IMG/VR virus record: IMGVR_UViG_3300006052_000013
Origin: a virus
DNA: 45,764 nt
Reading direction: 5' to 3' (one strand)
In this document: piece by piece, positions 28,677-43,006 of the stretch
Layout of the letters: each line of letters opens with the position of its first letter
How positions within the stretch are numbered: the stretch's first letter is position 1
Position numbers and translations under genes: made by a program
The notes under the pieces: generated by a model
Told to the model about the DNA's origin: nothing
Seen by the model: the letters and a program-made list of their open reading frames with translations, nothing else
Database searches by the model: none

Positions 28677-28741
28677 TTTCCTCTCCTGATATGGCAACAA
28701 ATAAGCCGTTGGCTTATTTGTTGAGGTTTCCCCTCATTGCC
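28677..28741 (-). promoter_or_regulatory. Y-shaped 5'-UTR element copy A
   Basis: AUGGCAA-U-GAGGGGAAACCUC-A-ACAAAUAAGCCAACGGCUUAUUUGU-UGCCAU-AUC-AGGAGAGG. Confidence 0.6.
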
Positions 28742-28768
28742 ATTACCGGCCCGTGGGCCGGCCCTCTG
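28742..28768 (-). repeat. JH motif copy 4
   Basis: CAGAGGGCCGGCCCACGGGCCGGUAAU; abuts a UAA. Confidence 0.8.
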
Positions 28769-28987
28769 TTACTGAATACCCCGCGCCGGTGGTACGTGGT
28801 GTGCGTCCGGACGCAATACCCCCGGCGGAACTTCCATATCGGGCGGCGGCGCACATCGGTTCTGAGATAGAAGCGCCTGTTGCATAATCTCCCAGGCCTT
28901 TTCCTGTCGCCGGGCCAAAGAGAATACATACCATAGGTACAATACTCCCAGTAAAATTAACGCCAAACTTGCCAAACCTTCATTCAT
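28769..28987 (-). CDS. small single-pass membrane protein
   Basis: Start reset to MNEGLASLALILLGVLYLWYVF after GGUAAGGAGGGAACAACA. Confidence 0.5.
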   Translation of the reverse strand: MNEGLASLALILLGVLYLWYVFSLARRQEKAWEIMQQALLSQNRCAPPPDMEVPPGVLRPDAHHVPPARGIQ

Positions 28988-28999
28988 TGTTGTTCCCTC

Positions 29000-29029
29000 C
29001 TTACCACGGGTATTACCCCGCGGCCCTCG
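29000..29029 (-). repeat. JH motif copy 5
   Basis: CGAGGGCCGCGGGGUAAUACCCGUGGUAAG; has a G-U pair; the sigma ORF stop UAA lies in the loop. Confidence 0.8.
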
Positions 29030-30362
29030 GTTGTTCTTCGGTGACCGGCGCCATCCAGTGCAGTTTTCCATCCGATTCCAGGATTAATTCTTTATCTTGG
29101 CATCGACGGATGATCGAATAGGCCTGACCATTTGTGGTACCCGCGGTCATCATCTTCTGAACTAATTCGTTCTTAGGAAGAGGCCCATCGGCGAGTATCT
29201 GTTTTAAGACCGGTTCCCAATATCCTCGTGGTGAACGAGTCTGCGGGGCATTTCCATTGACCTCATCATGGGCCGTCGCATTAATCGACTTCTTTCCCGT
29301 GATAATATCGTGGGCACTTGTCAGTTGTTCAATCACCGCGGTCCACTTACGGGCCTCGGCCTCGGATTCCGCGGCCTGCCGGGTATAAAACTGTACCTTG
29401 CGATGGGCATCAGATATCAAAGACTCGATGGTCGGTGGTGATCCACTTGGTATTTGTTCCATTGTTTTCTCTCCTTGTTGTTTTAGTTGAAAGAGATAGT
29501 TTTGATGAACAATCTCTTCCTGGGTATACTGCCGAACCGGCCCCGGTGCTGTGACCGTCCGGGGGGGACGGAGATTCACGGGGGTTTTTGCCAGAAGTCC
29601 GTGCGACGTAAATATTTGATTCGGGGCACGAGGGTCGCGTCCGCTCAGATGGTAATAACTACCCAGTTCCGTTTCATTGAATCTGGACGCCCCCGCATTC
29701 CGTGAACTTCGTATTTGCGTCGGTGGTGGACTCCCGATGTGTTCCCGGGCGGCCGCGGCGACCAGTTTTTCGCGCCGCAACCTTCGTTTTTTCTTGCTCA
29801 TTGATTTGCTCATTGATTTGCTCTCCCACAACACTCGAAGATCACTCAAACCGTGTGATTGATAGGCCTTTACGGCCCCGACGGACAAATTTAAAATTCC
29901 GGCGGTTTCTTCCAAAGTTTTTTCTTCCAGAAATCTAAGAAACAACACGCGGCGCCGGCTCCTATTCAAATACGGTAACAAGCGCAAAAAATGCTCACGT
30001 GTGATCCAGGAATCTATGGTTTTATCCGGAGTATCCGGCAAATCCAGGGTGTTTCCATCTTCATTGATGGGATTATCCAAGGATACTTCTGAAAGATTGT
30101 TCTTTCTTCGTAGGTACATCAAAAATTCCCGGTGCGCAATTTGATGCAACCAGGAACTTAATTTGGCCTCACCTCGAAAATCGCCGATGGCCAGAAAGGC
30201 CTTCGTAAAGGTCACCTGGGCCAGTTCTTCCACGGCGTCTTCATTCAGTTGCCAATATTTGCGCAAAGTTTTTTTTACCCGCGATAACTGGTCACGATAT
30301 ATTTGGGAGAACGCGTCTTGATCGCCGGATTTTGCACGATCTAATAATTCTTTTTCTTCCAC
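29013..30362 (-). CDS. ECF-like sigma-70 family factor with a ~270-aa C-terminal extension
   Basis: Region 2: DAFSQIYRD...SWLHQIAHREFLMYLRRK. Region 4: RRRVLFLRFLEEKTLEETAGILNLSVGAVKAYQSHGL. GTG start after AAAGGAGAACGUAA. Confidence 0.8.
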   Translation of the reverse strand: MEEKELLDRAKSGDQDAFSQIYRDQLSRVKKTLRKYWQLNEDAVEELAQVTFTKAFLAIGDFRGEAKLSSWLHQIAHREFLMYLRRKNNLSEVSLDNPINEDGNTLDLPDTPDKTIDSWITREHFLRLLPYLNRSRRRVLFLRFLEEKTLEETAGILNLSVGAVKAYQSHGLSDLRVLWESKSMSKSMSKKKRRLRREKLVAAAAREHIGSPPPTQIRSSRNAGASRFNETELGSYYHLSGRDPRAPNQIFTSHGLLAKTPVNLRPPRTVTAPGPVRQYTQEEIVHQNYLFQLKQQGEKTMEQIPSGSPPTIESLISDAHRKVQFYTRQAAESEAEARKWTAVIEQLTSAHDIITGKKSINATAHDEVNGNAPQTRSPRGYWEPVLKQILADGPLPKNELVQKMMTAGTTNGQAYSIIRRCQDKELILESDGKLHWMAPVTEEQPRAAG

Positions 30363-30384
30363 TTACGTTCTCCTTTGATATTTA

Positions 30385-30415
30385 CTTACCGGGGAAATAT
30401 ATCCCCCGGCCCTCG
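30385..30415 (-). repeat. JH motif copy 6
   Basis: CGAGGGCCGGGGGAUAUAUUUCCCCGGUAAG. Confidence 0.8.
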
Positions 30416-30430
30416 TTTTTACCACTACTT

Positions 30431-30601
30431 TTACACTTTCAAAACGGGATTTTCGTCCATCACCGCACGCTCGGCCAGAAACCCCGCCGCGGTGGCGGTG
30501 ATTTCTATCTCGCGGTGCCGATCCCGCACGGTGATTGTGCGGCCATTTAATAATTCTCGCAATTCTTTTTCTCCGAGTTCTACTTTAATTGGCTCTTTCA
30601 T
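30431..30601 (-). CDS. small hypothetical protein (56 aa)
   Basis: Start reset to MKEPIKV after AGGAGAGGAAC. Confidence 0.5.
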   Translation of the reverse strand: MKEPIKVELGEKELRELLNGRTITVRDRHREIEITATAAGFLAERAVMDENPVLKV

Positions 30602-30665
30602 GTTCCTCTCCTGGTATGGCAAACATTGCGGCGAAGCCGCATGTTTGAGGTTTCCCCTCATTGCC
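30602..30665 (-). promoter_or_regulatory. Y-shaped 5'-UTR element copy B
   Basis: AUGGCAA-U-GAGGGGAAACCUC-A-AACAUGCGGCUUCGCCGCAAUGUU-UGCCAU-ACC-AGGAGAGGAAC-AUG. Confidence 0.6.
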
Positions 30666-30694
30666 ATTACCGTGGATTTACCCACGGCCCTCTG
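30666..30694 (-). repeat. JH motif copy 7
   Basis: CAGAGGGCCGUGGGUAAAUCCACGGUAAU. Confidence 0.8.
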
Positions 30695-30714
30695 AGTTAC
30701 TAGGAATGGGCTTA

Positions 30715-30906
30715 TTAGGCAAACTGATAATCACTTTTTTTTGCTCGAAAGCCCTTTTTCTTGAGAAGACTGGCATCCCACCCCGTGATATCCTTCACGT
30801 CCTTTACGGCATACTCCCAGGCCTCGCTGGCAGATGTTCCGGGGCGATGATACAAAACTACCCCTTCTCGATCTACCAACATCCAAACCCGATCTAATTC
30901 TGGCAT
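30715..30906 (-). CDS. small hypothetical protein (63 aa)
   Basis: Start reset to MPELDRVW after AGGAGGGAAAGC. Confidence 0.5.
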   Translation of the reverse strand: MPELDRVWMLVDREGVVLYHRPGTSASEAWEYAVKDVKDITGWDASLLKKKGFRAKKSDYQFA

Positions 30907-30922
30907 GCTTTCCCTCCTGTTC

Positions 30923-30953
30923 ATTAACGCGGCAGGTTCGCCGCGTCCCTCTG
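30923..30953 (-). repeat. JH motif copy 8 (variant)
   Basis: CAGAGGGACGCGGCGAACCUGCCGCGUUAAU; abuts a UAA. Confidence 0.7.
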
Positions 30954-32057
30954 TTATTGTTTGACCAAATAACTTGTATCAACATCTACGTCTTCCCCGT
31001 TTCTCGACAACCGAGTTTGGTGCGAAATCAAGGAAAGATTTTCTTGAAAACTTGCAAGTTTGGGAACCGCCGTCCGTCCGATCATTGCAATGTAACCCCG
31101 ACCCCGCCAGGGTGGCATGTGATTTCTGGACAAACGTTCGACGATGGTTCGATAGTACAACATGCGATTGGTAAAGGACTCCGGGGCACCGGGTACGGGC
31201 GGCGTAAAGCTGATCTGAATATAATCAGTCCAACTTTTATCTGCGCCCGAGGCCCGCAGTTTGTACCGGGCCAGGGCGCCCGCGAAGTACCGCGCCAACT
31301 TGACATTGGCCGCGAACTCCGTAATGCCCGGTTCCCAGGCCCGATACCGTCGACGGTAATACTCCCGTTGCTCCGTGGGAATTTCCCCAGACCAACCCAA
31401 GTCCTGCAATTTTGCCCAAGACTTGGATTTATTCCGGTCATAACCCGGTTGGTCACTATCCACCAGATACTCGTACATGGCATCTTGTATCTGGTCGGCC
31501 AGGGCAAAGTAGGCCTCATAGGTAGTCAGATGTTTTTCCCGGACCGGATTCACAAAATGAAGATTTAGAATCCGAACCAAGGCCGACAAACCCTGTGAGT
31601 ACTCTTCCACCATTTCTGCTCCGACTGGGCCATCTTCTTGGTAGAGATACTCCGCGTTGATATCTTCAACACGAAGATTAAACTGGATAGATGGTGTGAA
31701 GACTTCCCGAACCTGCCGGTAAAGGCAGGCGAGTTGTTTCAGTGCCATGACCTCGGCCACATCCAGAATGGCCCCCGTCTTGGCCTTTCGGCCGCCCCAG
31801 GGAACCAGCACCGGAATTGCCTTACCCAGTTCGAGACTCTGCCGGATGACCGCCCGAATTGTCACCAGTGCCTCGGGTTTCGGGATCGGACCATAACGAT
31901 TCTGGTTCGTTCCCAAGAGAATACCGGTGATAATCTCGAGCAATGATTGTTTTGGAGGAGCCGCGGCGACGGGAAACTCCCGCCACAGAAACTCATCAAT
32001 CAAAGACGAGTAGGGATCGTCCACGGGTGATGTAACTTGGTACGTTGCTGTACTCAT
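30954..32057 (-). CDS. hypothetical protein (367 aa)
   Basis: Start reset to MSTATYQ after AGGAGAGGAAC; no family assigned with confidence. Confidence 0.6.
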   Translation of the reverse strand: MSTATYQVTSPVDDPYSSLIDEFLWREFPVAAAPPKQSLLEIITGILLGTNQNRYGPIPKPEALVTIRAVIRQSLELGKAIPVLVPWGGRKAKTGAILDVAEVMALKQLACLYRQVREVFTPSIQFNLRVEDINAEYLYQEDGPVGAEMVEEYSQGLSALVRILNLHFVNPVREKHLTTYEAYFALADQIQDAMYEYLVDSDQPGYDRNKSKSWAKLQDLGWSGEIPTEQREYYRRRYRAWEPGITEFAANVKLARYFAGALARYKLRASGADKSWTDYIQISFTPPVPGAPESFTNRMLYYRTIVERLSRNHMPPWRGRGYIAMIGRTAVPKLASFQENLSLISHQTRLSRNGEDVDVDTSYLVKQ

Positions 32058-32127
32058 GTTCCTCTCCTGGTATGGCAAACCAAGAGACGAAGTCTCTTGG
32101 TTCTGAGGTTTCCCCTCATTAACCATA
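32058..32127 (-). promoter_or_regulatory. Y-shaped 5'-UTR element copy C
   Basis: GUAUGGUUA-AUGAGGGGAAACCUCA-GAACCAAGAGACUUCGUCUCUUGGUU-UGCCAUAC-C-AGGAGAGGAAC-AUG. Confidence 0.6.
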
Positions 32128-32153
32128 CTTACCGTGGTTTCCCACGGCCCTCG
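32128..32153 (-). repeat. JH motif copy 9
   Basis: CGAGGGCCGUGGGAAACCACGGUAAG. Confidence 0.8.
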
Positions 32154-32156
32154 TCA

Positions 32157-32220
32157 TATCTCTAAATCTTGGAATGGCATTACATGAATATCTCTAAATC
32201 TTGGAATGGCATTACATGAA
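32157..32220. repeat. 32-bp tandem duplication (2 copies) at a gene 3' end / JH junction
   Basis: tatctctaaatcttggaatggcattacatgaa occurs twice and shifts the stop codon of 32180..32419. Confidence 0.85.
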
Positions 32221-32419
32221 TACCTCCCTGGAAGTGACCCATGAACACGATGGAATGATGAAACGGGTACTTAACCTTTAACAAATTTCTGTACCGTTCA
32301 ATTTTTGTTCCGATGGTCATTCCACTTTCAGAGGCGTCGTCCGGTCCTACTTCGACGATTGCCAGATTGTTCATGTAATCTTCATTGGAATGGTGGTTGA
32401 TAACGTAGATTAGTTTCAT
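32180..32419 (-). CDS. small hypothetical protein (79 aa)
   Basis: Start reset to MKLIYVINHH after AGGAGAGGAAC; C-terminus altered by the 32-bp duplication. Confidence 0.5.
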   Translation of the reverse strand: MKLIYVINHHSNEDYMNNLAIVEVGPDDASESGMTIGTKIERYRNLLKVKYPFHHSIVFMGHFQGGIHVMPFQDLEIFM

Positions 32420-32486
32420 GTTCCTCTCCTGGTACAGCAACAAGAGACGGTTTAAGTTTCTTGTTTGGGATTTTTTCCCGGCTGTA
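32420..32486 (-). promoter_or_regulatory. Y-shaped 5'-UTR element copy D
   Basis: GUACAGC-C-GGGAAAAAAUCCC-A-AACAAGAAACUUAAACCGUCUCUUGUU-GCUGUAC-C-AGGAGAGGAAC-AUG. Confidence 0.6.
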
Positions 32487-32514
32487 CTTACCGCGGGTTT
32501 CCCCGCGGCCCTCG
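32487..32514 (-). repeat. JH motif copy 10
   Basis: CGAGGGCCGCGGGGAAACCCGCGGUAAG. Confidence 0.8.
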
Positions 32515-32550
32515 TATCACTGCGAGAATCGCAGAGATATGTTTTTATTT

Positions 32551-32709
32551 TTACTGCGCCGCCACGGCGCTCGCCGCACTTGAAAAAACGTTATTGGAAT
32601 TGCTTCCAATCAGGCGAACCGTACCGACGACGATTACCAGAATTACCGCCAGCATCACGGCGTATTCTGCGATATCTTGCCCTTCTTCGGACTTCCACAG
32701 TGTTTTCAT
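32551..32709 (-). CDS. Flp/Fap-family (type IVb, Tad) pilin-like peptide
   Basis: MKTLWKSEEGQDIAEYAVMLAVILVIVVGTVRLIGSN...; G-x4-EY processing-type motif plus a hydrophobic helix. Start reset after AAAGGAGAAAACA. Confidence 0.6.
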   Translation of the reverse strand: MKTLWKSEEGQDIAEYAVMLAVILVIVVGTVRLIGSNSNNVFSSAASAVAAQ

Positions 32710-32720
32710 TGTTTTCTCCT

Positions 32721-32828
32721 TTAGTGAACTTGCCGATACAACAACCACAACAAAAAAAACCACGCGGTTGCGGAGATATCAAACCAGGTAAACCCCATGA
32801 AGACGGGGTGCAAGTTAAATGGCCACAT
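32721..32828 (-). CDS. small hydrophobic peptide (35 aa)
   Basis: MWPFNLHPVFMGFTWFDISATAWFFLLWLLYRQVH; ATG after GAAAGGAGGACGCGCGAU; below the track cutoff. Confidence 0.35.
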   Translation of the reverse strand: MWPFNLHPVFMGFTWFDISATAWFFLLWLLYRQVH

Positions 32829-32865
32829 ATCGCGCGTCCTCCTTTCAAGTCAATGGGGAGATTGA

Positions 32866-32891
32866 CTTACCGTGGTTTCCCACGGCCCTCG
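32866..32891 (-). repeat. JH motif copy 11
   Basis: CGAGGGCCGUGGGAAACCACGGUAAG; abuts a UAA. Confidence 0.8.
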
Positions 32892-33014
32892 TTAACGAAC
32901 CACGCTATAAACCAGATTAACATTGTCGCCGATTAGGTGGCGACTGCCGATGATAATGATTACGACGACCGCCAGTACTACTACGTACTCTCCGAGTTGT
33001 TTAAGTTTGTTCAT
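32892..33014 (-). CDS. Flp-pilin-like small peptide (40 aa)
   Basis: MNKLKQLGEYVVVLAVVVIIIIGSRHLIGDNVNLVYSVVR; ATG after CCGGAGGAAACA; below the track cutoff. Confidence 0.4.
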   Translation of the reverse strand: MNKLKQLGEYVVVLAVVVIIIIGSRHLIGDNVNLVYSVVR

Positions 33015-33028
33015 TGTTTCCTCCGGTA

Positions 33029-33056
33029 CTTACCGGCCCAGATGGGCCGGCCCTCG
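33029..33056 (-). repeat. JH motif copy 12
   Basis: CGAGGGCCGGCCCAUCUGGGCCGGUAAG; abuts a UGA. Confidence 0.8.
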
Positions 33057-33272
33057 TCACGCAGTAATAGGTTCCAGGGTAACCTTGAAACCCTTGAGGT
33101 CCCCGAGTTCAGAGATACCCAGTTCTTTCATCGCCTCCAGACGGTTGACGTAGATGTTGGTGAGTACGCCGGACTGATCCTTGGGAAGGCTGTATTTGAC
33201 TGCTCCCTTCTTGGGATCAACCACGCGCAGCTCTACGGTTACCGTCTTGGCCTTTGGTTTTTCGGGTGCCAT
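33057..33272 (-). CDS. small hypothetical protein (71 aa)
   Basis: Start reset to MAPEKPKAK after GUGGAGAGGAAAAAU. Confidence 0.5.
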   Translation of the reverse strand: MAPEKPKAKTVTVELRVVDPKKGAVKYSLPKDQSGVLTNIYVNRLEAMKELGISELGDLKGFKVTLEPITA

Positions 33273-33326
33273 ATTTTTCCTCTCCACTTTTAAGGTCACC
33301 GCCGGATTCGTGCCCCCGGCTTGTGC

Positions 33327-33354
33327 CTTACCGTGGGTTTCCCCACGGCCCTCG
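33327..33354 (-). repeat. JH motif copy 13
   Basis: CGAGGGCCGUGGGGAAACCCACGGUAAG. Confidence 0.8.
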
Positions 33355-33391
33355 TATCACTGCGATAATCGCAGAGATATGTTTTGAGTTT

Positions 33392-33604
33392 CTATTCACC
33401 ACCGTTGAAAGCACCGTCGGCGAGTAAATCGCAGGCGATGTCCATCGACTTGACGACGACCGCGGTCAGTGTTAATGCCTCGTGTCGCAAAAGAAAAGCG
33501 GCCACGATCAAAATCACTAACACGATCAGTTTAAACCACATACTGTGGTAAACCCGCCAAAATCTATTCTTGGCCCGGAGACGGCTTTGTCGTCTTCGGT
33601 TCAT
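33392..33604 (-). CDS. small membrane protein (70 aa)
   Basis: MNRRRQSRL...WFKLIVLVILIVAAFLL; the ATG lies 4 nt after the upstream stop (coupled). Confidence 0.4.
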   Translation of the reverse strand: MNRRRQSRLRAKNRFWRVYHSMWFKLIVLVILIVAAFLLRHEALTLTAVVVKSMDIACDLLADGAFNGGE

Positions 33605-33608
33605 TGAT

Positions 33609-33749
33609 TTATACTCGTGCGCCGCCGGCGATGGCAACTGATGCCACCCCACCCAGAAACGCAAGTTCAATCAGCAACCGATACACGTCATGAGAAACAT
33701 ACCACATGATCGCGTCTTGCAGACGTTTGACCACTTTGTCTCGGGACAT
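33609..33749 (-). CDS. small membrane peptide (46 aa)
   Basis: MSRDKVVKRLQDAIMWYVSHDVYRLLIELAFLGGVASVAIAGGARV; ATG after UAGGAGAGGAACAAU; below the track cutoff. Confidence 0.4.
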   Translation of the reverse strand: MSRDKVVKRLQDAIMWYVSHDVYRLLIELAFLGGVASVAIAGGARV

Positions 33750-33803
33750 ATTGTTCCTCTCCTAATAAGGCTCACTCCGGTTTTCGTGCCCCCGGATGGT
33801 GGC

Positions 33804-33833
33804 CTTACGGGTCACCGGAGTGACCCGCCTTCG
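33804..33833 (-). repeat. JH motif copy 14 (variant, GAAGGC flank)
   Basis: CGAAGGCGGGUCACUCCGGUGACCCGUAAG. Confidence 0.65.
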
Positions 33834-33843
33834 GGGAAACAAC

Positions 33844-34059
33844 TTAGGCGGCCTGGTTCAAATCGTACCGGGCCAAATCATGCTGGTTTGCATGGTGAAC
33901 CTTTTCGGCCCACTTTACGGCGACGGCCGAGGTTAGATAGTTGGTTTCTTCGACCGATCCGTCTGAGTGTTCCAGAATAATACGATCGGCGGCCTCGATG
34001 GCCTTGTTGATTGCTTCTTGACGACGCATATCGCGATTGTTGATACTATCCGTGATCAT
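33844..34059 (-). CDS. small hypothetical protein (71 aa)
   Basis: ATG after UAAGGAGAGGAAA. Confidence 0.5.
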   Translation of the reverse strand: MITDSINNRDMRRQEAINKAIEAADRIILEHSDGSVEETNYLTSAVAVKWAEKVHHANQHDLARYDLNQAA

Positions 34060-34093
34060 TTTCCTCTCCTTACAAGGCTCACTCTATTGTGGC

Positions 34094-34122
34094 CTTACCG
34101 TGGGTTTTCCCCACGGCCCTCG
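34094..34122 (-). repeat. JH motif copy 15
   Basis: CGAGGGCCGUGGGGAAAACCCACGGUAAG; abuts a UAA. Confidence 0.8.
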
Positions 34123-36884: not shown

Positions 36885-36903
36885 TTGAAATTCTCTCCTT
36901 GTA

Positions 36904-36931: not shown

Positions 36932-36953
36932 TTATCAGGGACACTACATCTTG

Positions 36954-37364: not shown

Positions 37365-37398
37365 GTTAATTCCTCTCCTATTTAAAGATTTGATTGGT

Positions 37399-37428
37399 CT
37401 TACGGGTCACCGAAGTGACCCACCCTCG
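37399..37428 (-). repeat. JH motif copy 23
   Basis: CGAGGGUGGGUCACUUCGGUGACCCGUAAG; UUCG loop; abuts a UAA. Confidence 0.8.
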
Positions 37429-38991
37429 TTAGTCGTTCTGTTTTTCTTTGTACTCCATAGACCGCACGATGACCCCGAACAACAGGTCGCCCAGGCGGTG
37501 CAACATACCCGGAATCACGATCGCGTTGGGGTTGTGGGAGGTTCCCAGAAGGGCGCCAAACCCAAAGTAACCTTTGTGCAACCGGAGTTCCGGGTCGGCC
37601 AGTCCGGGAGACTTTTGAATTTCTCCGTCGTAGTCGTATTGCATTTCATTGTGCCGGAAACTGCAACCGAAGTTCACCAGATCGTCGGGGCGATTCTCAT
37701 AACCGGTCAGGTTATAAAACTCATCCACTTTGGTTTCGGTCTGGGAACGACCCCGCCGGATCACAAAGTCTTTTATGATCCGGTCCCACCCGGTGACATC
37801 TGACACGATGCGCCCCGTCCGCAGTGCCCGGTAGTAATCGGCCCGGTTCTGGGGAAGATCGCCCTCGTAATCTACCAGGTTCGAGGCAGAAAGATCACGA
37901 AATACCCGGTACTTCGTGTTTTTTTGGATGATGTAATCATCCGGATTAAATACGGAGTCCTTGGGATAGTGGGTCAATACCGAATAATCGGTATCAATTC
38001 CTCGATCCTGGGCATCGTGAAGTTGCCGGAGCATCTCGGCGGTAGAGTTTCCCAGGCCAATAAAGAGAAATTTCTTTCCCTTAATTTGCGGGTAAGTGAG
38101 GCGCTTTTGCCAACGGTTACCGGCGTGGGTGACCTCCGCAGATGTCACCATACGGTGGCGATCCGAGAGGTTTTTCGGTTTTCCCAGTCCCAGGCAGTTG
38201 ATGACGATGGGGTACTCCTTAAAACTTTGACCACGGTCATAAACCCCGTGGGCAAGATTGTTCGGAGTAACCGTGGTGACGTCGTTGGTGATAACGTTTA
38301 ATGAATTGGCGTTCTGGATATTTTGCAGAAAATCCCGTACCTCCGATCCTTCGCCGGGCGCCGGTTCCAGGGCATACTCGCCCAGGACCAATCTACGAGG
38401 ATTGTTTCGACTCCCGCCTTTGATATCTTCCCGTGACCAGATTCCAAATGGTTTGCCCTTTTCATAAAGAGTTACATTTTTAAATCCGGTGCGACTCAGG
38501 CCATATCGTACAATTTGGCCCGCCGCCCCACCACCGATGATGGCAATGGGTGTGTTCCCAATGTCCAAATTGATCACGTTATAAAACGTGGACAAACGTC
38601 CGGCGATACCACTCCCAAAAAAATTATTGGAAGTATTTACCGGAGAGACGGCCAAGGCGCGATCAATTACTTGATTTTGCTCGGGCGTTCCCCGGTAAGT
38701 AACACAGTCGGCGGGTTTCGAGAACAACGAAACTTCACCCAAATAATCCAACACCGGAAATTTTTGGTATATTTCATCTCCGGAAACATTACGCAAGACG
38801 TAACTTCCCAGAAACTTTCCCAGCATTTTCCGACGGCCCATTTCAACAATGGCCTGGTTACTCCAACCTTTATCGCGCGTCATACGTTTTAACACGGATA
38901 TCGGATTGGATAACATTATTGGACTAACGACGTTGTACGACTTCATCGCTTCAACTGCCAAGAACGACTTCAACATTTCTTGGTGATTCAT
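37429..38991 (-). CDS. two-dinucleotide-binding-domain flavoprotein (FAD/NAD(P)-dependent oxidoreductase or monooxygenase-like)
   Basis: IAIIGGGAAGQIVRYGL (GxGxxG) and FLFIGLGNSTAEMLRQL (a second Rossmann motif); start reset to MNHQEML after ACAGGAGAAGAACAA. Confidence 0.7.
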   Translation of the reverse strand: MNHQEMLKSFLAVEAMKSYNVVSPIMLSNPISVLKRMTRDKGWSNQAIVEMGRRKMLGKFLGSYVLRNVSGDEIYQKFPVLDYLGEVSLFSKPADCVTYRGTPEQNQVIDRALAVSPVNTSNNFFGSGIAGRLSTFYNVINLDIGNTPIAIIGGGAAGQIVRYGLSRTGFKNVTLYEKGKPFGIWSREDIKGGSRNNPRRLVLGEYALEPAPGEGSEVRDFLQNIQNANSLNVITNDVTTVTPNNLAHGVYDRGQSFKEYPIVINCLGLGKPKNLSDRHRMVTSAEVTHAGNRWQKRLTYPQIKGKKFLFIGLGNSTAEMLRQLHDAQDRGIDTDYSVLTHYPKDSVFNPDDYIIQKNTKYRVFRDLSASNLVDYEGDLPQNRADYYRALRTGRIVSDVTGWDRIIKDFVIRRGRSQTETKVDEFYNLTGYENRPDDLVNFGCSFRHNEMQYDYDGEIQKSPGLADPELRLHKGYFGFGALLGTSHNPNAIVIPGMLHRLGDLLFGVIVRSMEYKEKQND

Positions 38992-39025
38992 TTGTTCTTC
39001 TCCTGTATAAGCCCGATTCATCGGA

Positions 39026-39055
39026 CTTACACCCCCGTTTCCGGGGATGCCCTCG
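39026..39055 (-). repeat. JH motif copy 24
   Basis: CGAGGGCAUCCCCGGAAACGGGGGUGUAAG; has a U-G pair. Confidence 0.75.
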
Positions 39056-39060
39056 TATCA

Positions 39061-39303
39061 CTAAGGAACAAACTGGTACCAAAGAAGTGTCCCCGGTGGA
39101 TAGGGAACCTCCTCGTGTTTTTGTTTCGTGAACCAGATGGCAACCCGTTCCAGATCGGCGTCTGATGCGAGTGCCTCGGTATACTTGGTCTCACCGTCCG
39201 ATTGCAGATTTTCCTTTACAAAGTTATACTGCCGGATATCTGCGAGGGAGGCCTCGACCAGGGCGGTTTCTTTGTCGCCTTTGATAATCAATCGTATTGA
39301 CAT
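39061..39303 (-). CDS. small hypothetical protein (80 aa)
   Basis: ATG after CGAGAGGAUAAC, 1 nt after the upstream stop. Confidence 0.5.
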   Translation of the reverse strand: MSIRLIIKGDKETALVEASLADIRQYNFVKENLQSDGETKYTEALASDADLERVAIWFTKQKHEEVPYPPGTLLWYQFVP

Positions 39304-39304
39304 G

Positions 39305-39499
39305 TTATCCTCTCGTTTTTACCGGTTTGTGCGGGAAGTGAGAGTGACCGTGAGTACTTTTTGGCCAACTTGCCACCGCCGAACGGTGATGTCCCCTGCT
39401 ACCGCGGGAGGACGCCTCGGCGGGACGCGCAAGCCACGAAAAAAGTAGCAACAGTAACAGCAGCGGCCAAAGTGGCGCCAAATTCCTTACGATGTTCAT
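39305..39499 (-). CDS. small secreted-type His/Arg-rich peptide
   Basis: Signal-like LAPLWPLLLLLLLFSWLARPAEA, then SSRGSRGHHRS..THGHSHFPHKP. Confidence 0.45.
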   Translation of the reverse strand: MNIVRNLAPLWPLLLLLLLFSWLARPAEASSRGSRGHHRSAVASWPKSTHGHSHFPHKPVKTRG

Positions 39500-39565
39500 A
39501 TGTTCCTCTCCTGGTATGGCAAACTGAACGGGTACCGTTCAGTTCTGAGGTTTTCCCTCATTGCC
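39500..39565 (-). promoter_or_regulatory. Y-shaped 5'-UTR element copy F
   Basis: AUGGCAA-U-GAGGGAAAACCUC-A-GAACUGAACGGUACCCGUUCAGUU-UGCCAU-ACC-AGGAGAGGAAC. Confidence 0.6.
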
Positions 39566-39593
39566 ATTACCGGACTTATCGTCCGACCCTCTG
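39566..39593 (-). repeat. JH motif copy 25
   Basis: CAGAGGGUCGGACGAUAAGUCCGGUAAU. Confidence 0.75.
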
Positions 39594-39595
39594 TG

Positions 39596-39928
39596 CTACC
39601 GTGTTAAACCCACGGAAGAGTTTTTATTTAGGTGAAAAGCCCGAAGGCAATCTTCCAAGGTTTGTCTCAAACCATCATAGGCGGCCTTTTTGAGCGTCTC
39701 ATCATACGTCTTGATAAAATCCCGGTACTCATCCTCGGTCCACCCAGTCCAGTTGTCGACCGCCTCGTCAAGAACCCCTTCCATATCTTCCTGGTTGTAG
39801 TTCATACGGTGTGACCAAACGAGAGTTTCAGACATGGCCTGCGTTGCCGAGATGGCCCCGATGAAGGCCTCATCCCGGTCAGTTAATTGATCCAAAATGT
39901 TTACTGTCTCGTCAGTCAATACCGACAT
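39596..39928 (-). CDS. acidic hypothetical protein (110 aa)
   Basis: ATG after AAAAGGAGAACAAU. Confidence 0.55.
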   Translation of the reverse strand: MSVLTDETVNILDQLTDRDEAFIGAISATQAMSETLVWSHRMNYNQEDMEGVLDEAVDNWTGWTEDEYRDFIKTYDETLKKAAYDGLRQTLEDCLRAFHLNKNSSVGLTR

Positions 39929-39956
39929 ATTGTTCTCCTTTTAGTCCATATTTGGA

Positions 39957-39983
39957 CTTACCGCCCAAGGTGGGCGGCCCTCA
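39957..39983 (-). repeat. JH motif copy 26
   Basis: UGAGGGCCGCCCACCUUGGGCGGUAAG. Confidence 0.75.
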
Positions 39984-39987
39984 TTGC

Positions 39988-40113
39988 TTACTGCCCCGGC
40001 CCCGACGGAATCGTCAACGCGGCCTCCAGGATGATGAATACACCGGCCATTGCCGCGATAAACAACGCCGTCCAGATATGTTTACGGAACGTCCGCCAAA
40101 TTTGTTTACGCAT
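39988..40113 (-). CDS. small membrane peptide (41 aa)
   Basis: MRKQIWRTFRKHIWTALFIAAMAGVFIILEAALTIPSGPGQ; the start overlaps the upstream stop; below the track cutoff. Confidence 0.35.
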   Translation of the reverse strand: MRKQIWRTFRKHIWTALFIAAMAGVFIILEAALTIPSGPGQ

Positions 40114-40315
40114 GGGCATTCTCCACTTGTTCGGCGGTTAGATCGAGAAGAAGATCAATTTCTGTGGTGGAAAGAGAAGTGTCATTAATTTCAAGAAAAC
40201 TCTTGAGACCTTCTCGGCCACCCCGGCGATATTCTTCCAGGTCAATTTTCTCGAGATTTTCTGCGACTTCGGGGGTGTACATCTTTGCCAATGCTTCTCG
40301 AAGTGAAAGTTTCAT
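40106..40315 (-). CDS. small hypothetical protein (69 aa)
   Basis: ATG after UAAGGAGAACCA. Confidence 0.5.
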   Translation of the reverse strand: MKLSLREALAKMYTPEVAENLEKIDLEEYRRGGREGLKSFLEINDTSLSTTEIDLLLDLTAEQVENAHA

Positions 40316-40340
40316 TGGTTCTCCTTAGTCCATATTTGGA

Positions 40341-40368
40341 CTTACCACTCCTCACGGAATGGCCCTCG
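40341..40368 (-). repeat. JH motif copy 27
   Basis: CGAGGGCCAUUCCGUGAGGAGUGGUAAG; GUGA loop holds the upstream stop; has a U-G pair. Confidence 0.8.
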
Positions 40369-40633
40369 TAAAAAATCCATTTGTTTTAAGTTTGACCAAC
40401 ATATCGGCCAGAATTGAGTATGACCCGATCCAAATATGTCGACCTGCCCTTTTACCGTTGTCGATGTAACGAATTCCGGCGGTGCCCTCGTCCTGGGAAT
40501 ACCATATAATCATCGCGGTGCGGTCACTTGCCTCGCCACGAAAATATCTGGTATCACCCTCGGATTTTCTGGGATATGTTTGTACAAACCCCAATTCTTT
40601 TAAGATATCGTCGGGGTGATCTTTTTCAGTCAT
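40352..40633 (-). CDS. hypothetical protein (93 aa)
   Basis: Start reset to MTEKDHPDD after CAAAGGAGAUAACG. Confidence 0.5.
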   Translation of the reverse strand: MTEKDHPDDILKELGFVQTYPRKSEGDTRYFRGEASDRTAMIIWYSQDEGTAGIRYIDNGKRAGRHIWIGSYSILADMLVKLKTNGFFTRAIP

Positions 40634-40649
40634 CGTTATCTCCTTTGCA

Positions 40650-40677
40650 CTTACGGCCACCGAAGTGACCGCCCTCG
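40650..40677 (-). repeat. JH motif copy 28
   Basis: CGAGGGCGGUCACUUCGGUGGCCGUAAG; UUCG loop; has a U-G pair. Confidence 0.8.
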
Positions 40678-40679
40678 TA

Positions 40680-40916
40680 CTACTGTTTAAAGTGTTGCCC
40701 CGCGGGGAAGGTGATACCCTTCCCAAACTTCCATTCCATGTTTGTCATATCGCCGCCGTCGGTGATAATGACCCGCACGGTGGTGCCCAGGCGGGCGCCC
40801 ACCGAATGGGTATAGTGTTGGAACGCCTTCACCGCCTCTTCCGGCCCCACAAATCGTCTCACATATTCATAGGCGCCATCCGGAAAAAATTGGCAAACAG
40901 AAAATTCATTTTCCAT
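40680..40916 (-). CDS. small hypothetical protein (78 aa)
   Basis: ATG after ACAGGAGAAAAAC. Confidence 0.55.
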   Translation of the reverse strand: MENEFSVCQFFPDGAYEYVRRFVGPEEAVKAFQHYTHSVGARLGTTVRVIITDGGDMTNMEWKFGKGITFPAGQHFKQ

Positions 40917-40930
40917 GTTTTTCTCCTGTA

Positions 40931-40957
40931 CTTACCGGGTTTTCAACCCGGCCCTCG
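40931..40957 (-). repeat. JH motif copy 29
   Basis: CGAGGGCCGGGUUGAAAACCCGGUAAG. Confidence 0.8.
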
Positions 40958-40958
40958 T

Positions 40959-41234
40959 TTATTTTTCAACTCCCATTCTTCCAAGCAACTGCATGACCGA
41001 CTTTGTCCGAAACGGAGACAACTGCCGGGGTATGGTGTGCATCAGATGCACACCGACCCCGACTTCCAGTAAGGCCGAGTCGATATGATTTAACACCGCC
41101 GATTCTGACTTTGCCTCCCCGGCTCTTTGCAGGGCCGCGATCGCCAATTCCAAAGCATCTCGATAATTGACCCCGGTGGCCCGTTTTGCGGCCTCTTGTT
41201 CTTTGTGAAAGTCGTCGACATTTGTTTCAAACAT
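40959..41234 (-). CDS. hypothetical protein (91 aa)
   Basis: Start reset to MFETNVDD after CAAAGGAGAACAAA. Confidence 0.5.
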   Translation of the reverse strand: MFETNVDDFHKEQEAAKRATGVNYRDALELAIAALQRAGEAKSESAVLNHIDSALLEVGVGVHLMHTIPRQLSPFRTKSVMQLLGRMGVEK

Positions 41235-41250
41235 TTTGTTCTCCTTTGTA

Positions 41251-41278
41251 CTTACGGTCACCGGGGTGACCGCCCTCG
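41251..41278 (-). repeat. JH motif copy 30
   Basis: CGAGGGCGGUCACCCCGGUGACCGUAAG. Confidence 0.8.
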
Positions 41279-41279
41279 T

Positions 41280-41522
41280 TCAATCTTGATGATAACCACC
41301 GTCCGGATTGGGCGGCAGTAACTCATCATAGGGATTACCGTCGAACAACTTTGCCAACGGAATAATCTCAATTTCTTTCCCGACTATGTTCAACGCCGCC
41401 ACGACGGCCACCGACTTTCCGGTGGACTTATCCTGGCAGTCGATTAAACAAAGTCGGTCGTTGTGATTGGCGTTCGACAATGTTCGGAAGTTGGCGATCT
41501 GACCCTTCGAAAGTTTTGGCAT
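41280..41522 (-). CDS. small hypothetical protein (80 aa)
   Basis: ATG after ACAAGGAGCGUAAU. Confidence 0.55.
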   Translation of the reverse strand: MPKLSKGQIANFRTLSNANHNDRLCLIDCQDKSTGKSVAVVAALNIVGKEIEIIPLAKLFDGNPYDELLPPNPDGGYHQD

Positions 41523-41537
41523 ATTACGCTCCTTGTA

Positions 41538-41567
41538 CTTACCGACTCATTTTTGAGTCGGCCCTCG
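41538..41567 (-). repeat. JH motif copy 31
   Basis: CGAGGGCCGACUCAAAAAUGAGUCGGUAAG. Confidence 0.8.
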
Positions 41568-41570
41568 TTT

Positions 41571-41590
41571 TGGCCATCAGGCGGCCCTCG
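41571..41590 (-). repeat. truncated JH 5' half directly upstream of copy 31
   Basis: CGAGGGCCGCCUGAUGGCCA matches the 5' half of copy 33 (CGAGGGCCGCCUGAG...) but lacks the 3' arm and GGUAAG. Confidence 0.6.
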
Positions 41591-41888
41591 TTGCTTTTTT
41601 GAGCTTGGCCCGGATTGCCCCGGTATCCACCCCATCCAACAGTTCCTCGACGGCCTGCGCCCATTCCAAAACATCCTCGGCCAGGTTATAAGCCCGTTTG
41701 TTTTTCGGGGACAGTGCCTCGGGATCATTGTCCAGGGCCGTGGTCTGGTCCTCGGCAATGATACTGAGACTCATCGCCTCACCATGGGCGACTTCGACCG
41801 CATTGATAACCTTTGCCAATTGCGCCTCGATCTTTTGACGAAAGAGACGTTCCGGAAGTACAATCAACTTTTTTCTTTTGTAAGTCAT
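41577..41888 (-). CDS. hypothetical protein (103 aa)
   Basis: Start reset to MTYKRKKL after CCAAGGAGAGGAACAAA; the C-terminus ..TRAA reads into the truncated JH. Confidence 0.5.
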   Translation of the reverse strand: MTYKRKKLIVLPERLFRQKIEAQLAKVINAVEVAHGEAMSLSIIAEDQTTALDNDPEALSPKNKRAYNLAEDVLEWAQAVEELLDGVDTGAIRAKLKKATRAA

Positions 41889-41976
41889 TTTGTTCCTCTC
41901 CTTGGTAAGTGACGGATCGACGTCATCCTTGCAACTGGCCGTTCGAAGGGGACTCAACAAACACACACCCTTACTA

Positions 41977-42003
41977 GGCGCGGGCGAGTGGAATCGAACC
42001 GAC
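41977..42003 (-). other. tRNA 3'-end-like fragment (T-loop plus acceptor 3' strand) inside a 5' UTR
   Basis: RNA sense GGUUCGAUUCCACUCGCCCGCGCC; no matching 5' half, D arm or anticodon arm. Confidence 0.3.
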
Positions 42004-42009
42004 CCGTCA

Positions 42010-42035
42010 CTTACCGCCCGACCGGGCGGCCCTCG
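42010..42035 (-). repeat. JH motif copy 32
   Basis: CGAGGGCCGCCCGGUCGGGCGGUAAG; abuts a UAA. Confidence 0.8.
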
Positions 42036-42239
42036 TTAGTGTTCCAACTCCACCAAACCAACCTCATCATCAACGCAGGTTTCATGACCCTGTTTCCACA
42101 GTTCCTCGGCCAACAATAGAACCTCTCCCCGATTTTGGAAGTTCTTTTTGGTATATTTCACGATCTGCGGAGACAGGCAATCAACATCCGTTGTGAATTT
42201 AATTCGCCCACCTTTTTCCTGTCCTATGTGATATATCAT
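42036..42239 (-). CDS. small hypothetical protein (67 aa)
   Basis: Start reset to MIYHIGQEKGG after AAAGAGAGGAACA. Confidence 0.5.
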   Translation of the reverse strand: MIYHIGQEKGGRIKFTTDVDCLSPQIVKYTKKNFQNRGEVLLLAEELWKQGHETCVDDEVGLVELEH

Positions 42240-42334
42240 TGTTCCTCTCTTTTTGAAGTACCGGGCCGCACGCGCTCGGAGTCTCGTCATGGACTACTCA
42301 ACCATGATCTTGTCGTCTTGGGTGAGACCCGGTA

Positions 42335-42360
42335 CTTACCGCCTTCTCAGGCGGCCCTCG
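42335..42360 (-). repeat. JH motif copy 33
   Basis: CGAGGGCCGCCUGAGAAGGCGGUAAG; the upstream ORF stop UGA lies in the loop. Confidence 0.8.
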
Positions 42361-42637
42361 TAAGGTTCTGGTAAAGTGATTTCAGGTCTTTGCCCCCACC
42401 CAAATCGCGGTAGGGCACGGTATAGTCACCAAACGGTTCACGGGTGAACCGCTTCCGTTCCCACACCTGAAAGTCTTCGGCGACGAACAGGAATTCCAAC
42501 GGATCAGACCGCCGCCGGAGTATCCAGGTATCATCGACGATTCGCAAAATCGGTCTCATATAAATAGACCAACCCTGTTCTTTCAGATCGAGCAACAACT
42601 TGGTGAATTCTTTGCTTTGTTCGTGGTTCTTTTTCAT
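42347..42637 (-). CDS. hypothetical protein (96 aa)
   Basis: Start reset to MKKNHEQSK after AUGGAGAGAAAACA. Confidence 0.5.
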   Translation of the reverse strand: MKKNHEQSKEFTKLLLDLKEQGWSIYMRPILRIVDDTWILRRRSDPLEFLFVAEDFQVWERKRFTREPFGDYTVPYRDLGGGKDLKSLYQNLTRAA

Positions 42638-42652
42638 TGTTTTCTCTCCATA

Positions 42653-42678
42653 CTTACCACCCCGTGGGGTGGCCCTCG
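42653..42678 (-). repeat. JH motif copy 34
   Basis: CGAGGGCCACCCCACGGGGUGGUAAG; abuts a UGA. Confidence 0.8.
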
Positions 42679-42942
42679 TCAACCAATATCGTTATTGAAC
42701 CAGTTAGTAGTGTCCTGGTCTTTTTGGTGAAGTTCAGGAAATGCGTCGACCAGTTTGTCGGCGATGTTTTCGGCGACGTGATGACTCTCACTGGCCACGG
42801 CCGTGTATTCCCGTTCATAATCGGTACTGCCCGGCCCGACGTACTCCCAGGTTCCTTTGTTGGTCTTTTCGAACGTCTGGGCCTCTACTCGTACGGTCGT
42901 GACATAGACGGTGCGTTGTTCTTTTTGCAAAGTTCTTGCCAT
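42679..42942 (-). CDS. hypothetical protein (87 aa)
   Basis: Start reset to MARTLQKEQ after AGGAGAGGAAU. Confidence 0.5.
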   Translation of the reverse strand: MARTLQKEQRTVYVTTVRVEAQTFEKTNKGTWEYVGPGSTDYEREYTAVASESHHVAENIADKLVDAFPELHQKDQDTTNWFNNDIG

Positions 42943-43006
42943 ATTCCTCTCCTGGTACAGCAACAAGAGATGTAATCTCTTGTTGGGATTTCCTCCCTTA
43001 ACTGTA
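42943..43006 (-). promoter_or_regulatory. Y-shaped 5'-UTR element copy G
   Basis: GUACAGU-UAA-GGGAGGAAAUCCC-A-ACAAGAGAUUACAUCUCUUGU-UGCUGUAC-C-AGGAGAGGAAU-AUG. Confidence 0.6.

Follow-up and report, generated by a model that had tools for sequence, protein, structure and literature searches.

The stretch of DNA analysed here (45,764 nt, hereafter the window) belongs to a phage and is recorded in IMG/VR as IMGVR_UViG_3300006052_000013. On its minus strand, seven genes are preceded by a Y-shaped RNA element of 52-59 nt (the Y element), in which three helices (P1y, P2y and P3y) form a three-way junction. The fold is real and well supported. Judging from the aligned sequences, we hold with high confidence that the element descends from the P2(5')-L2-P3 part of a type-P5 twister ribozyme unit; it is a lineage-specific, twister-derived variant and not an independent new class. 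The reading that we favour, with a probability of about 0.5, is that this remodelled P3 domain of twister origin constitutes the structured 5' end of the downstream mRNA.

Fold and covariation of the Y element

The initial annotation had placed a three-helix element in seven intergenic intervals; the element was recovered in all seven, on the minus strand, and the intervals were right to within a few nucleotides (Table 1). In every copy the parts follow the order GG-UAA-(P1y 5' strand)-U-(P2y hairpin)-A(A/G)-(P3y hairpin)-(P1y 3' strand)-(A)C(C)-AGGAGAGGAAY-AUG, in which the junction linkers are 1, 1-2 and 0 nt long and AGGAG marks the Shine-Dalgarno sequence (SD). The proposed three-way junction is the minimum free energy (MFE) structure of each of the seven copies folded alone, with energies of -20.5 to -33.8 kcal/mol and z-scores of -3.3 to -5.3 against dinucleotide-preserving shuffles. 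A two-part degenerate pattern matched exactly the seven Y sites, with 0 matches expected by chance, and a covariance model trained on three copies (R1) retrieved all seven at E = 6e-9 to 8e-23. The next-best matches of R1 scored 18-20 bits and were not Y-shaped; the weak matches at 27637-27686, 34060-34121 and 33753-33807 were rejected as Y elements, their score coming from the common SD tail and from unrelated hairpins.

Compensatory changes had been claimed for all three helices, and this is borne out. P1y occurs in three sequence versions (AUGGCAA/UUGCCAU, GUACAGC/GCUGUAC and GUGUGGCAG/CUGCCAUAC), each with the pairing kept, and P2y occurs as GAGG/CCUC and GGGA/UCCC; the latter is limited to two related copies (c32420 and c42943) and probably reflects one event. 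P3y has a different sequence in each copy and forms a near-perfect stem of 9-12 bp in all of them, with a core of CAAGAGA/UCUCUUG common to three. The P2y hairpin and the tail UACCAGGAGAGGAA are almost invariant, the P2y loop being GGAAA, GAAAA, GAAA or AAAAA. In a model-based alignment of the seven copies, which was fitted to the structure and whose pair counts are to be read accordingly, double-sided changes were found in 12 of the 20 modelled pairs; 91% of the paired cells were complementary, compared to 33-45% when the 3' partners were slid, and the covariation score was reached by none of 500 shuffles. A strand test on the pairs yielded four G-U and one A-C, too few to decide. The three versions of P1y and the saturated P3y, standing beside a near-invariant P2y and tail, speak for a fold that has long been under selection and against copying in the recent past.

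All seven copies share one orientation and the same register relative to the upstream trinucleotide U|AA and to the SD. P1y starts 1-2 nt past U|AA, and its 3' strand ends 1-3 nt ahead of the SD (AGGAGAGG) in all seven copies, a proximity that the initial annotation had also pointed out. The peptide LPYQERNM, described there as part of a spurious N-terminal extension, is the translation of UUGCCAUACCAGGAGAGGAACAUG, as taken from the sequence.

Twister-type junctions and the ancestry of the Y element

Twister ribozymes are built from P1-L1-P2-L2-P4-L4 and two pseudoknots, T1 (L4-L1) and T2 (L4-L2), on both of which catalysis relies; P3 is an optional stem found in 78% of members, and P5 occurs in 1% (PMC6154101). 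The Rfam consensus of the type-P5 family (RF02684) reads cGCA-GAGgG-(P1 hairpin)-UAA-UGCg-GCAagac-(P4: CGG-UCcCAAGC-CCG). The hairpin upstream of each Y element belongs to a larger family of the form (stop codon)-xAC-GAGGG-(variable hairpin of 6-9 bp)-UAA-GU(AC), and comparison with the Rfam alignments identifies this junction as the P2(3')-L1-P1-U|AA-P2(5') module of a type-P5 twister, including the scissile trinucleotide. A strict regular expression found 35 junctions from 44135 to 27124, all on the minus strand; the plus strand and the 10 kb upstream of the array contain none. A covariance model of the junction (R2) gave 33 matches, in the alignment of which all nine modelled pairs, including the seven of P1, show double-sided changes, and 97.9% of the paired cells are complementary as against 23-44% when slid. 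The dinucleotides before GAGGG and after UAA covary as well (AC/GU in 20 cases, CA/UG in six and CC/GG in one). The invariant GAGGG and UAA, together with the covarying P1 and P2 in about 35 copies, argue that the junction motif is under selection; the object of selection may be a ribozyme, minimal or assisted, or else a site at which a nuclease or some other protein acts. At the curated gathering thresholds of Rfam the junctions have no match, and the Y element has none either, in agreement with the initial annotation. When matches were ranked by E-value, RF02684 was the only family to match the junctions repeatedly, and it did so on the minus strand only.

The first unit of the array (44139-44009) is a candidate for a complete type-P5-like twister. 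It matches all conserved positions of the consensus, and the T1 (GGG/CCC) and T2 (GC/GC) partners are complementary. Its score against RF02684 is 30.0 bits (E = 3e-4 in an 801-nt search and 0.008 in a 19.8 kb search), which is below the gathering score of 37.6 bits, being lowered by the P1 loop of 23 nt and by an insert of 59 nt where the optional P3 would be. This insert is what had been taken for a degenerate eighth copy of the Y element (44029-44095); it does not adopt the Y fold and is instead the P3 insert of the complete twister.

An alignment of this twister with the seven Y cassettes (A5) is collinear except for a segment of 42 nt. CAGAGGG, P1 and UAAUG.GC are followed by an A-rich hairpin (GGAAAAUCC in the twister vs GAGGGGAAACCUC in the cassettes), a variable hairpin and GAUUGCCAUACCAAG vs UUGCCAUACCAGG. 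The twister then has 42 nt of its own (CCACG-CCAGUCCCAAGCCUGG-AUAAGAGCACCGGGAACAAGG), which hold the 3' strand of P3, P4 with L4, and a linker, and beyond which the alignment resumes at AGAGGAAC..AUG. Short repeats, CCAAG and CAAGG, bound these 42 nt. The earlier statement that no ribozyme class is recognisable is thus wrong with respect to ancestry and context, as the preceding hairpin is P1 of a twister-type module and the Y element is collinear with the twister; nor is the element a free-standing insert between the junction hairpin and the SD, since it is not independent of that module. The accompanying statement that the element lacks a hammerhead core was correct: the Y linkers contain no CUGANGA...GAAA...UH, and there was no hammerhead match in Rfam at E <= 5.

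The seven Y cassettes are related to twisters in part of the architecture only. P1 and L1 (N|A-A, GAGGG) are present, with GAGGG and UAA invariant in all seven junctions, and the candidate P2 consists of just 2 bp (AC/GU or CA/UG) that covary. The GU or UG that pairs in P2 with the upstream AC or CA is also taken up by P1y, a new closing helix not found in the twister. P1y and P2 are therefore mutually exclusive, and P1y is by far the more stable of the two. P4 with L4 (UCCCAAGC) is absent, the 42 nt that contain L4 in the twister being missing from all seven cassettes, and there is neither an L4 for T1 nor a partner for T2. The CCUC or UCCC of P2y could pair with GAGGG but sits in a covarying local stem. 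Only two of the Y-cassette junctions (c30602 and c32420) match RF02684, at 23-23.9 bits and below the gathering score. A P4/L4 in cis is absent both upstream and downstream of the junctions; on the minus strand, canonical L4 hairpins were found at two positions only (44609-44594 and 44024-44009), both of them in the leader of the array. In about a dozen plain cassettes, UAAGUAC leads straight to the SD without any insert.

The Y element is the largest of several families of structures that come first after the putative cut site. Other closed hairpins or domains, unrelated to it, follow further junctions, and their closing helices begin within about -1 to +2 of U|AA (Table 1). The insert of about 75 nt after junction 42359 (42236-42364, minus strand) carries ACCCAAGAC, which resembles L4. 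That of about 110 nt after junction 42034 (41885-42039, minus strand) contains GGUCGGUUCGAUUCCACUCGCCCGCGCC, reminiscent of a tRNA T-arm/acceptor fragment, and terminates in the Y-like tail CUUACCAAGGAGAGGAAC; ARAGORN called no tRNA in it. A small family of the form AAGGC..CCGGGGGCACGAA(U/A)..CCGG..GCCUU occurs after junction 33353 (33269-33358) and in the gap 33843-33750 behind the degenerate GAAGG junction, and a shorter AAGGC..GCCUU hairpin follows junction 34121 (34060-34125, minus strand). On the same strand, two hairpins directly after U|AA have loops complementary to GAGGG (CUCCCC after junction 32890, 32863-32894; a CCCUC-containing loop after junction 35909, 35821-35913) and are possible minimal T1-like partners.

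The leader also holds a second, incomplete twister-like unit, which has GAAGUCCACU in place of GAGGG-P1-UAA. Its L2 'AC' fits the 'GU' of its L4, so that T2 seems to have covaried (GC/GC to AC/GU) despite the loss of L1 and P1. A direct repeat, GGGACUCUCCUCC, is found in the leader at 44171-44183 and 44105-44117 (minus strand), the second copy forming the P1 loop of the complete twister; it includes CUCCUG, the complement of CAGGAG in the conserved SD tail, and could be anti-SD-like.

Table 1. Positions of the Y elements, junctions, twister-type units and other features of the array in the window. Cleavage positions are putative. ORF, open reading frame; aa, amino acids; R1 and R2, covariance models of the Y element and the junction.
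Feature	Position	Strand	Description
Y copy c28677	28691..28744	minus	P1y AUGGCA(A)/UUGCCAU, P2y GAGG-GGAAA-CCUC, P3y 11 bp; SD 28678-28687; AUG 28674-28676; 135-aa ORF; R1 88.7 bits; MFE structure a three-way junction, -25.0 kcal/mol, z = -5.05
Y copy c30602	30616..30668	minus	SD 30603-30612; AUG 30599-30601; 56-aa ORF; R1 91.4 bits
Y copy c32058	32070..32130	minus	P1y GUAUGGU/GCCAUAC, P3y 12 bp; SD 32059-32068; AUG 32055-32057; 367-aa ORF; R1 67.7 bits
Y copy c32420	32432..32489	minus	P1y GUACAGC/GCUGUAC, P2y GGGA-AAAAA-UCCC; SD 32421-32430; AUG 32417-32419; 79-aa ORF; R1 41.4 bits
Y copy c34798	34810..34867	minus	P1y GUGUGGCAG/CUGCCAUAC, P2y GAGG-GAAA-CCUC; SD 34799-34808; AUG 34795-34797; 72-aa ORF; R1 41.3 bits
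Y copy c39500	39516..39568	minus	P2y loop GAAAA; SD 39503-39512; AUG 39497-39499; 64-aa ORF; R1 79.5 bits
Y copy c42943	42955..43009	minus	P1y GUACAGU/GCUGUAC, P2y GGGA-GGAAA-UCCC; SD 42944-42953; AUG 42940-42942; 87-aa ORF; R1 46.7 bits
Junction array	27095..44139	minus	33-35 modules (GAGGG, covarying hairpin, UAA), one ahead of nearly every small ORF
Junction upstream of c28677	28743..28768	minus	CA-GAGGG-P1 hairpin-U|AA; putative cleavage 28745/28744
Junction upstream of c30602	30667..30694	minus	putative cleavage 30669/30668; Rfam Twister-P5 23 bits; R2 41.4 bits
Junction upstream of c32058	32129..32154	minus	putative cleavage 32131/32130
Junction upstream of c32420	32488..32515	minus	putative cleavage 32490/32489; Rfam Twister-P5 23.9 bits; R2 49.3 bits
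Junction upstream of c34798	34866..34895	minus	putative cleavage 34868/34867
Junction upstream of c39500	39567..39593	minus	putative cleavage 39569/39568; R2 17.9 bits (weakest copy)
Junction upstream of c42943	43008..43035	minus	putative cleavage 43010/43009
Degenerate junction, 37th copy	~33835	minus	GAAGG
Complete type-P5-like twister candidate	44009..44139	minus	P2 UGCA 44139-44136 with UGC 44088-44086; L1 GAGGG 44135-44131; P1 GCGACUGU/ACAGUCGU 44130-44123 and 44099-44092; U|AA 44091-44089; L2 'GC' 44085-44084; P3 stem CGUGG/CCACG 44083-44079 and 44029-44025; P4 CCAG/CUGG with L4 UCCCAAGC 44024-44009
P3 insert of the complete twister	44025..44083	minus	Y-homologous sequence: GGAAAAUCC, 9-10 bp hairpin, GAUUGCCAUACCAAG; not Y-folded
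Incomplete twister-like unit	44594..44632	minus	P2 CGU/ACG, 'AC', P4 CAGG/CCUG, L4 UCCCAAGU; no GAGGG/P1/UAA; Rfam 22.9 bits
Closed domain	after a junction	minus	AAGUCAAU...AUUGACUU
Closed domain	after a junction	minus	AGUCCA...UGGACU
Closed domain, ~75 nt		minus	AAGUACCGGG...CCCGGUACUU
Closed domain, ~110 nt		minus	UAAGUGACGG...CCGUCACUUA
Closed domains, small family		minus	AAGGC...GCCUU
Sigma70-like promoter match	45272..45300	minus	TTTTCA-17-TATAAT; best on the coding strand
Intrinsic-terminator-like hairpin	26986..27009	minus	10 bp stem with 9 G-C, then T tract; just past the last junction

Putative transcription unit, proposed function and alternatives

The array is bracketed by the promoter match and the terminator-like hairpin listed in Table 1, and nothing comparable was found between 45300 and 26986 on the coding strand. 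This arrangement fits a single long early transcript of about 18 kb that is punctuated by the junctions, and we regard the segment from ~45300 to ~26990 (minus strand) as a putative early transcription unit, with the terminator-like hairpin as its putative end. Between the promoter-like site and the first cassette gene lies an ORF-free leader of about 1.3 kb (43977-45270, minus strand), which is highly structured according to its MFE fold, carries the one complete and the one incomplete twister unit, and matches no other Rfam family at E <= 5.

No similarity was found among the ORFs that follow the seven Y elements and the twister. Duplication of whole cassettes was rejected for this reason, and the leader is taken to be a portable module. 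Searches of Pfam and PHROGs with the seven downstream proteins gave nothing significant. The 367-aa protein has 55 relatives, with identities of up to 52%, in other uncultured phages; the four contigs with such relatives that were inspected (L059, L060, L062 and L063) contain neither junctions nor Y elements, which suggests that the module was acquired in the present lineage. The strain variants in four further samples match the window at 100% identity, and blastn against deposited phages gave no match. Scans of IMG/VR, JGI metagenomes and GTDB genomes with exact and degenerate patterns returned chance matches only, the scans of large collections being restricted to exact matches, by which diverged homologues would be missed. 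The matches that were inspected were discarded because they lay inside coding sequence without a P3 hairpin, had no curated twister match, or were lone matches in unrelated taxa (GTDB).

According to the reading that we favour, the early RNA would be cut at or near U|AA, in the first unit possibly by twister chemistry; at the junctions lacking P4 a partner would be required, or a nuclease to which the conserved L1/P1 motif is the signal. After the cut, the freed mRNA would begin with the Y element as its compact, base-paired 5' end. P1y would out-compete the 2-bp P2, which would trap the product, sequester the new 5' end and protect the message. The outcome would be a defined, context-independent leader ahead of a strong SD, a natural analogue of RiboJ-type insulators; a further contact, tertiary or with a protein, may come from the P2y hairpin (GAGG-GGAAA-CCUC), whose sequence is conserved. 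We have moderate confidence in an end-capping or processing function of the Y element.

Several points weigh against this reading. Cleavage, which is putative for every unit, is its weakest link: the seven Y cassettes and about 27 further junctions have no P4/L4, and since twister catalysis needs it (PMC6154101), canonical self-cleavage is not expected at these roughly 34 junctions. The leader might supply L4 in trans, but a search of its 1.3 kb for guide-like stretches complementary to the conserved flanks of the junctions found none. When RNAs that have the Y element and RNAs that lack it were compared by partition-function folding, in cleaved and uncleaved form, SD accessibility showed no consistent gain. 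The conservation of P2y and UACCAGGAGAGGAA exceeds what a mere end-cap would need. Finally, the comparative evidence consists of paralogues in one phage genome; neither the pattern scans, limited to exact matches, nor protein-anchored searches with the 367-aa protein and the sigma factor encoded within the array found homologues outside this phage.

Processing of polycistronic RNA by bacterial or phage ribozymes has been proposed, not shown (PMC6765202). A bolder form of the cleavage reading, which we consider rather unlikely, is that about 35 L4-less GAGGG-hairpin-U|AA modules cut the operon of ~18 kb into single-gene mRNAs, either alone, with Y-type domains or with a partner in trans (RNA or protein), the Y element being a new accessory or 5'-capping domain. 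If the minimal modules do direct cleavage, they would make up a new functional class, that of minimal or trans-completed twister-type RNAs, and arrays of small ribozyme motifs would have their first clear biological role in the expression of phage genes.

One alternative is that of a translational operator: the Y element, with the GNRA-like or boxB-like A-rich loop of P2y and the invariant UACCAGGAGAGGAA, would be bound by a phage or host protein or by a small RNA that co-regulates translation or stability of seven early genes. A near-invariant P2y and tail beside a saturated P3y are typical of sequence-specific recognition combined with a structural spacer, and the element abuts the SD and occurs in only seven of about 36 cassettes, ahead of unrelated ORFs. 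We nevertheless consider an operator fairly unlikely, because no candidate binding protein was identified, the AGGAGAGGAA tail is present in Y-less cassettes too, the P2y stem covaries (GAGG/CCUC to GGGA/UCCC) and its loop varies, so that recognition is not strictly sequence-specific, and the collinearity with the twister unit is left unexplained. The same collinearity lends some credit to a relic or selfish repeat, by which the Y elements would be decayed copies of the first twister leader without a function of their own, spread among the junctions by recombination as in PeSL shuffling. The CCAAG/CAAGG repeats that flank the 42-nt difference, the occurrence of the module ahead of unrelated ORFs, and homologues of the 367-aa gene in other phages without the module agree with this, and repeated intergenic motifs are known substrates of recombination in T4-type phages (PMC2839356, PMC4122927). 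What makes a mere relic quite unlikely is that the newly built P1y, absent from the twister, is maintained by compensatory changes in three versions, that P3y has fully diverged and still forms a near-perfect stem in each copy, a sign of purifying selection on structure, and that orientation and register to U|AA and SD are identical in all seven. The leader may well have reached its places ahead of unrelated genes through recombination at the junctions, of the kind proposed for PeSL, and such recombination is compatible with a function at the RNA level. A miniature inverted-repeat transposable element or other small mobile DNA repeat is unlikely: P1y can be read as a terminal inverted repeat but exists in three covarying versions, the flanks lack a consistent duplication, all seven copies share one orientation and register, and G-U pairs exceed A-C pairs by four to one.

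It is also conceivable that the Y element itself restores catalysis, as part of a non-canonical, P4-less twister-like ribozyme. It would provide the missing tertiary contacts, for example through pairing of the P2y CCUC/UCCC-AA with the GAGGG of the junction as a substitute for T1, in competition with the local P2y stem, and the RNA would cleave itself at U|AA, possibly in a switchable manner. L1 (GAGGG/UAA), P1 and P2 are kept in all junctions as if the architecture of an active site mattered; CCUC or UCCC stands before A(A/G) in each Y copy, resembling CCC-AA in L4; two other inserts have C-rich loops complementary to GAGGG (those after 32890 and 35909); and Rfam places P2y at the position of P4 in c30602. 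However, the covariation of P2y favours a local hairpin over a pseudoknot, P2y aligns with the P3 domain of the twister in A5 and not with L4, an equivalent of T2 is lacking, and some 12 plain junctions have no insert, so that a general mechanism cannot need the Y element. Non-circular rearrangements of twisters have been sought and none found (PMC10085705), and we regard this ribozyme as improbable.

A role in gating the SD had been suggested by the initial annotation but is not borne out by folding: the local MFE fold leaves the SD unpaired, and deletion of the Y element in silico shifts its accessibility in no consistent direction. Three-way junctions are common scaffolds of riboswitches, and the 5' untranslated position beside the SD would suit a metabolite riboswitch or an RNA thermometer; with linkers of 1, 1-2 and 0 nt that leave no conserved pocket, no SD-sequestering alternative fold common to the copies, no Rfam match, and unrelated orphans as downstream genes, such a device is very improbable. 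Hardly any weight can be given to a tRNA-like signal, in which a 7-bp P1y stacked on P3y and followed by ACCA would mimic the acceptor/T arm and RNase P would cut 5' of P1y. Three copies do have a 7-bp P1y followed by A-CCA (A-UCA in c28677), P3y stacks on P1y across a 0-nt linker, and the insert after junction 42034 contains the T-arm-like GGUUCGAUUCC, but ARAGORN found no tRNA or tRNA-like gene in the window, the helix end is shifted in four copies, which puts CCA out of register, there is no T-loop, and the conservation of GAGGG is left unexplained.

Several other features of the region were recorded. One gene within the cassette array (29013-30362, minus strand) encodes a 449-aa protein of the sigma-70 family with regions 2 and 4; a word-seeded search among 5.8 billion proteins found no homologue of this protein but itself. 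An 851-aa protein (18149-20704, minus strand) has the shoulder domain of Major Vault Protein (PF11978, E = 1.5e-26) and also matches the vault repeat weakly, which is unusual in a phage. A DNA methylase, a T4 Rnl1-type RNA ligase and an Acb2/Tad1-like protein are encoded downstream of the array at about 22670-24690 (contig L057, 17071-19775). The RNA ligase is noteworthy beside many ribozyme-type cut sites, as ribozyme products have 2',3'-cyclic phosphate and 5'-OH ends. Tandem copies of GGGGCAACCGCGCC lie at the edge of the window (45700-45764, minus strand). An 86-bp repeat with 95% identity occurs at 22650-22735 and in contig L066 at 2295-2379, about 5 kb past the right edge of the window and upstream of the early operon; its orientation is opposite to that of the remainder of L066, which matches the window in reverse, so that the two copies form an inverted repeat.

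The role of genomic small self-cleaving ribozymes in bacteria and phages is largely unexplained, and this phage is an unusually clean test case. A single promoter-like site and a single terminator-like hairpin occur together with one complete twister, and some 34 half-modules of twister origin sit precisely in the gaps from stop codon to ribosome-binding site; in addition, there are several families of closed 5' domains whose start is the scissile position. Should the junctions be cut, this would be a natural, ribozyme-type system of punctuation and insulation for operon expression, maybe with a minimal or trans-completed twister; if they are not, it would be an example of ribozyme parts exapted into other RNA signals. 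In either case the Y element adds to the known structured RNA motifs one that has solid covariation, and as a portable natural leader it is of possible interest to synthetic biology.

Comparison with known systems

The early genes of phage T7 are separated by RNase III sites, which are long irregular duplexes cut by a host protein. The junctions of the array are likewise repeated, structured intercistronic signals, and they would divide a long early polycistronic RNA into defined mRNAs with structured ends; the T7 sites lack the GAGGG/UAA loop and are unrelated to ribozymes. In phage-like contexts, RAGATH-type motifs and other structured RNAs reportedly lie next to twister and hammerhead ribozymes (work of Weinberg et al. 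from 2015 and 2017). The Y element resembles them as a structured RNA of no known function that is physically tied to twister-type ribozymes in a phage (for the context of RAGATH-type motifs near ribozymes, see PMC10085705 and PMC5737381). It differs in that no Rfam family, including RAGATH, matches it at E <= 5, and in being fused in register to the putative cleavage site instead of merely lying nearby.

The PeSL cassettes of T4-type phages (PMC2839356, PMC4122927) are likewise short stem-loop motifs repeated between small ORFans in a hyperplastic early region, with a plausible shuffling of cassettes and the same leader ahead of unrelated genes. PeSL, however, consist of a sigma70 promoter and a terminator hairpin and act at the level of DNA and transcription, whereas the phage junctions carry L1 of the twister and their stems covary as RNA; no promoter-like or terminator-like site was found on the coding strand at the junctions or Y elements.

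The closest relative is the type-P5 twister (RF02684, clan CL00120). The module 5' of every Y element has its P2(3')-GAGGG-P1-U|AA-P2(5') order of parts, with covarying P1 and candidate P2, and the distal hairpin of the Y element is as free in sequence as P3 of twisters. In the Y cassettes, by contrast, the 2-bp P2 competes with a new P1y of 7-9 bp, which closes a three-way junction not seen in twisters, and a series of about 35 such modules in one operon was not found described in the twister literature cited here. In layout, the Y cassettes parallel RiboJ and related synthetic insulators; RiboJ, in which a ribozyme and a hairpin precede the ribosome-binding site, increases the levels of transcript and protein (PMC6206723). 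Its ribozyme is the sTRSV hammerhead in engineered form and its hairpin a simple one of 23 nt, whereas the phage module is twister-like, mostly lacks the catalytic loop, and would keep a three-way junction of 52-59 nt after a cleavage that is putative here; both combine a ribozyme-type site, a structure retained at the new 5' end and a ribosome-binding site.

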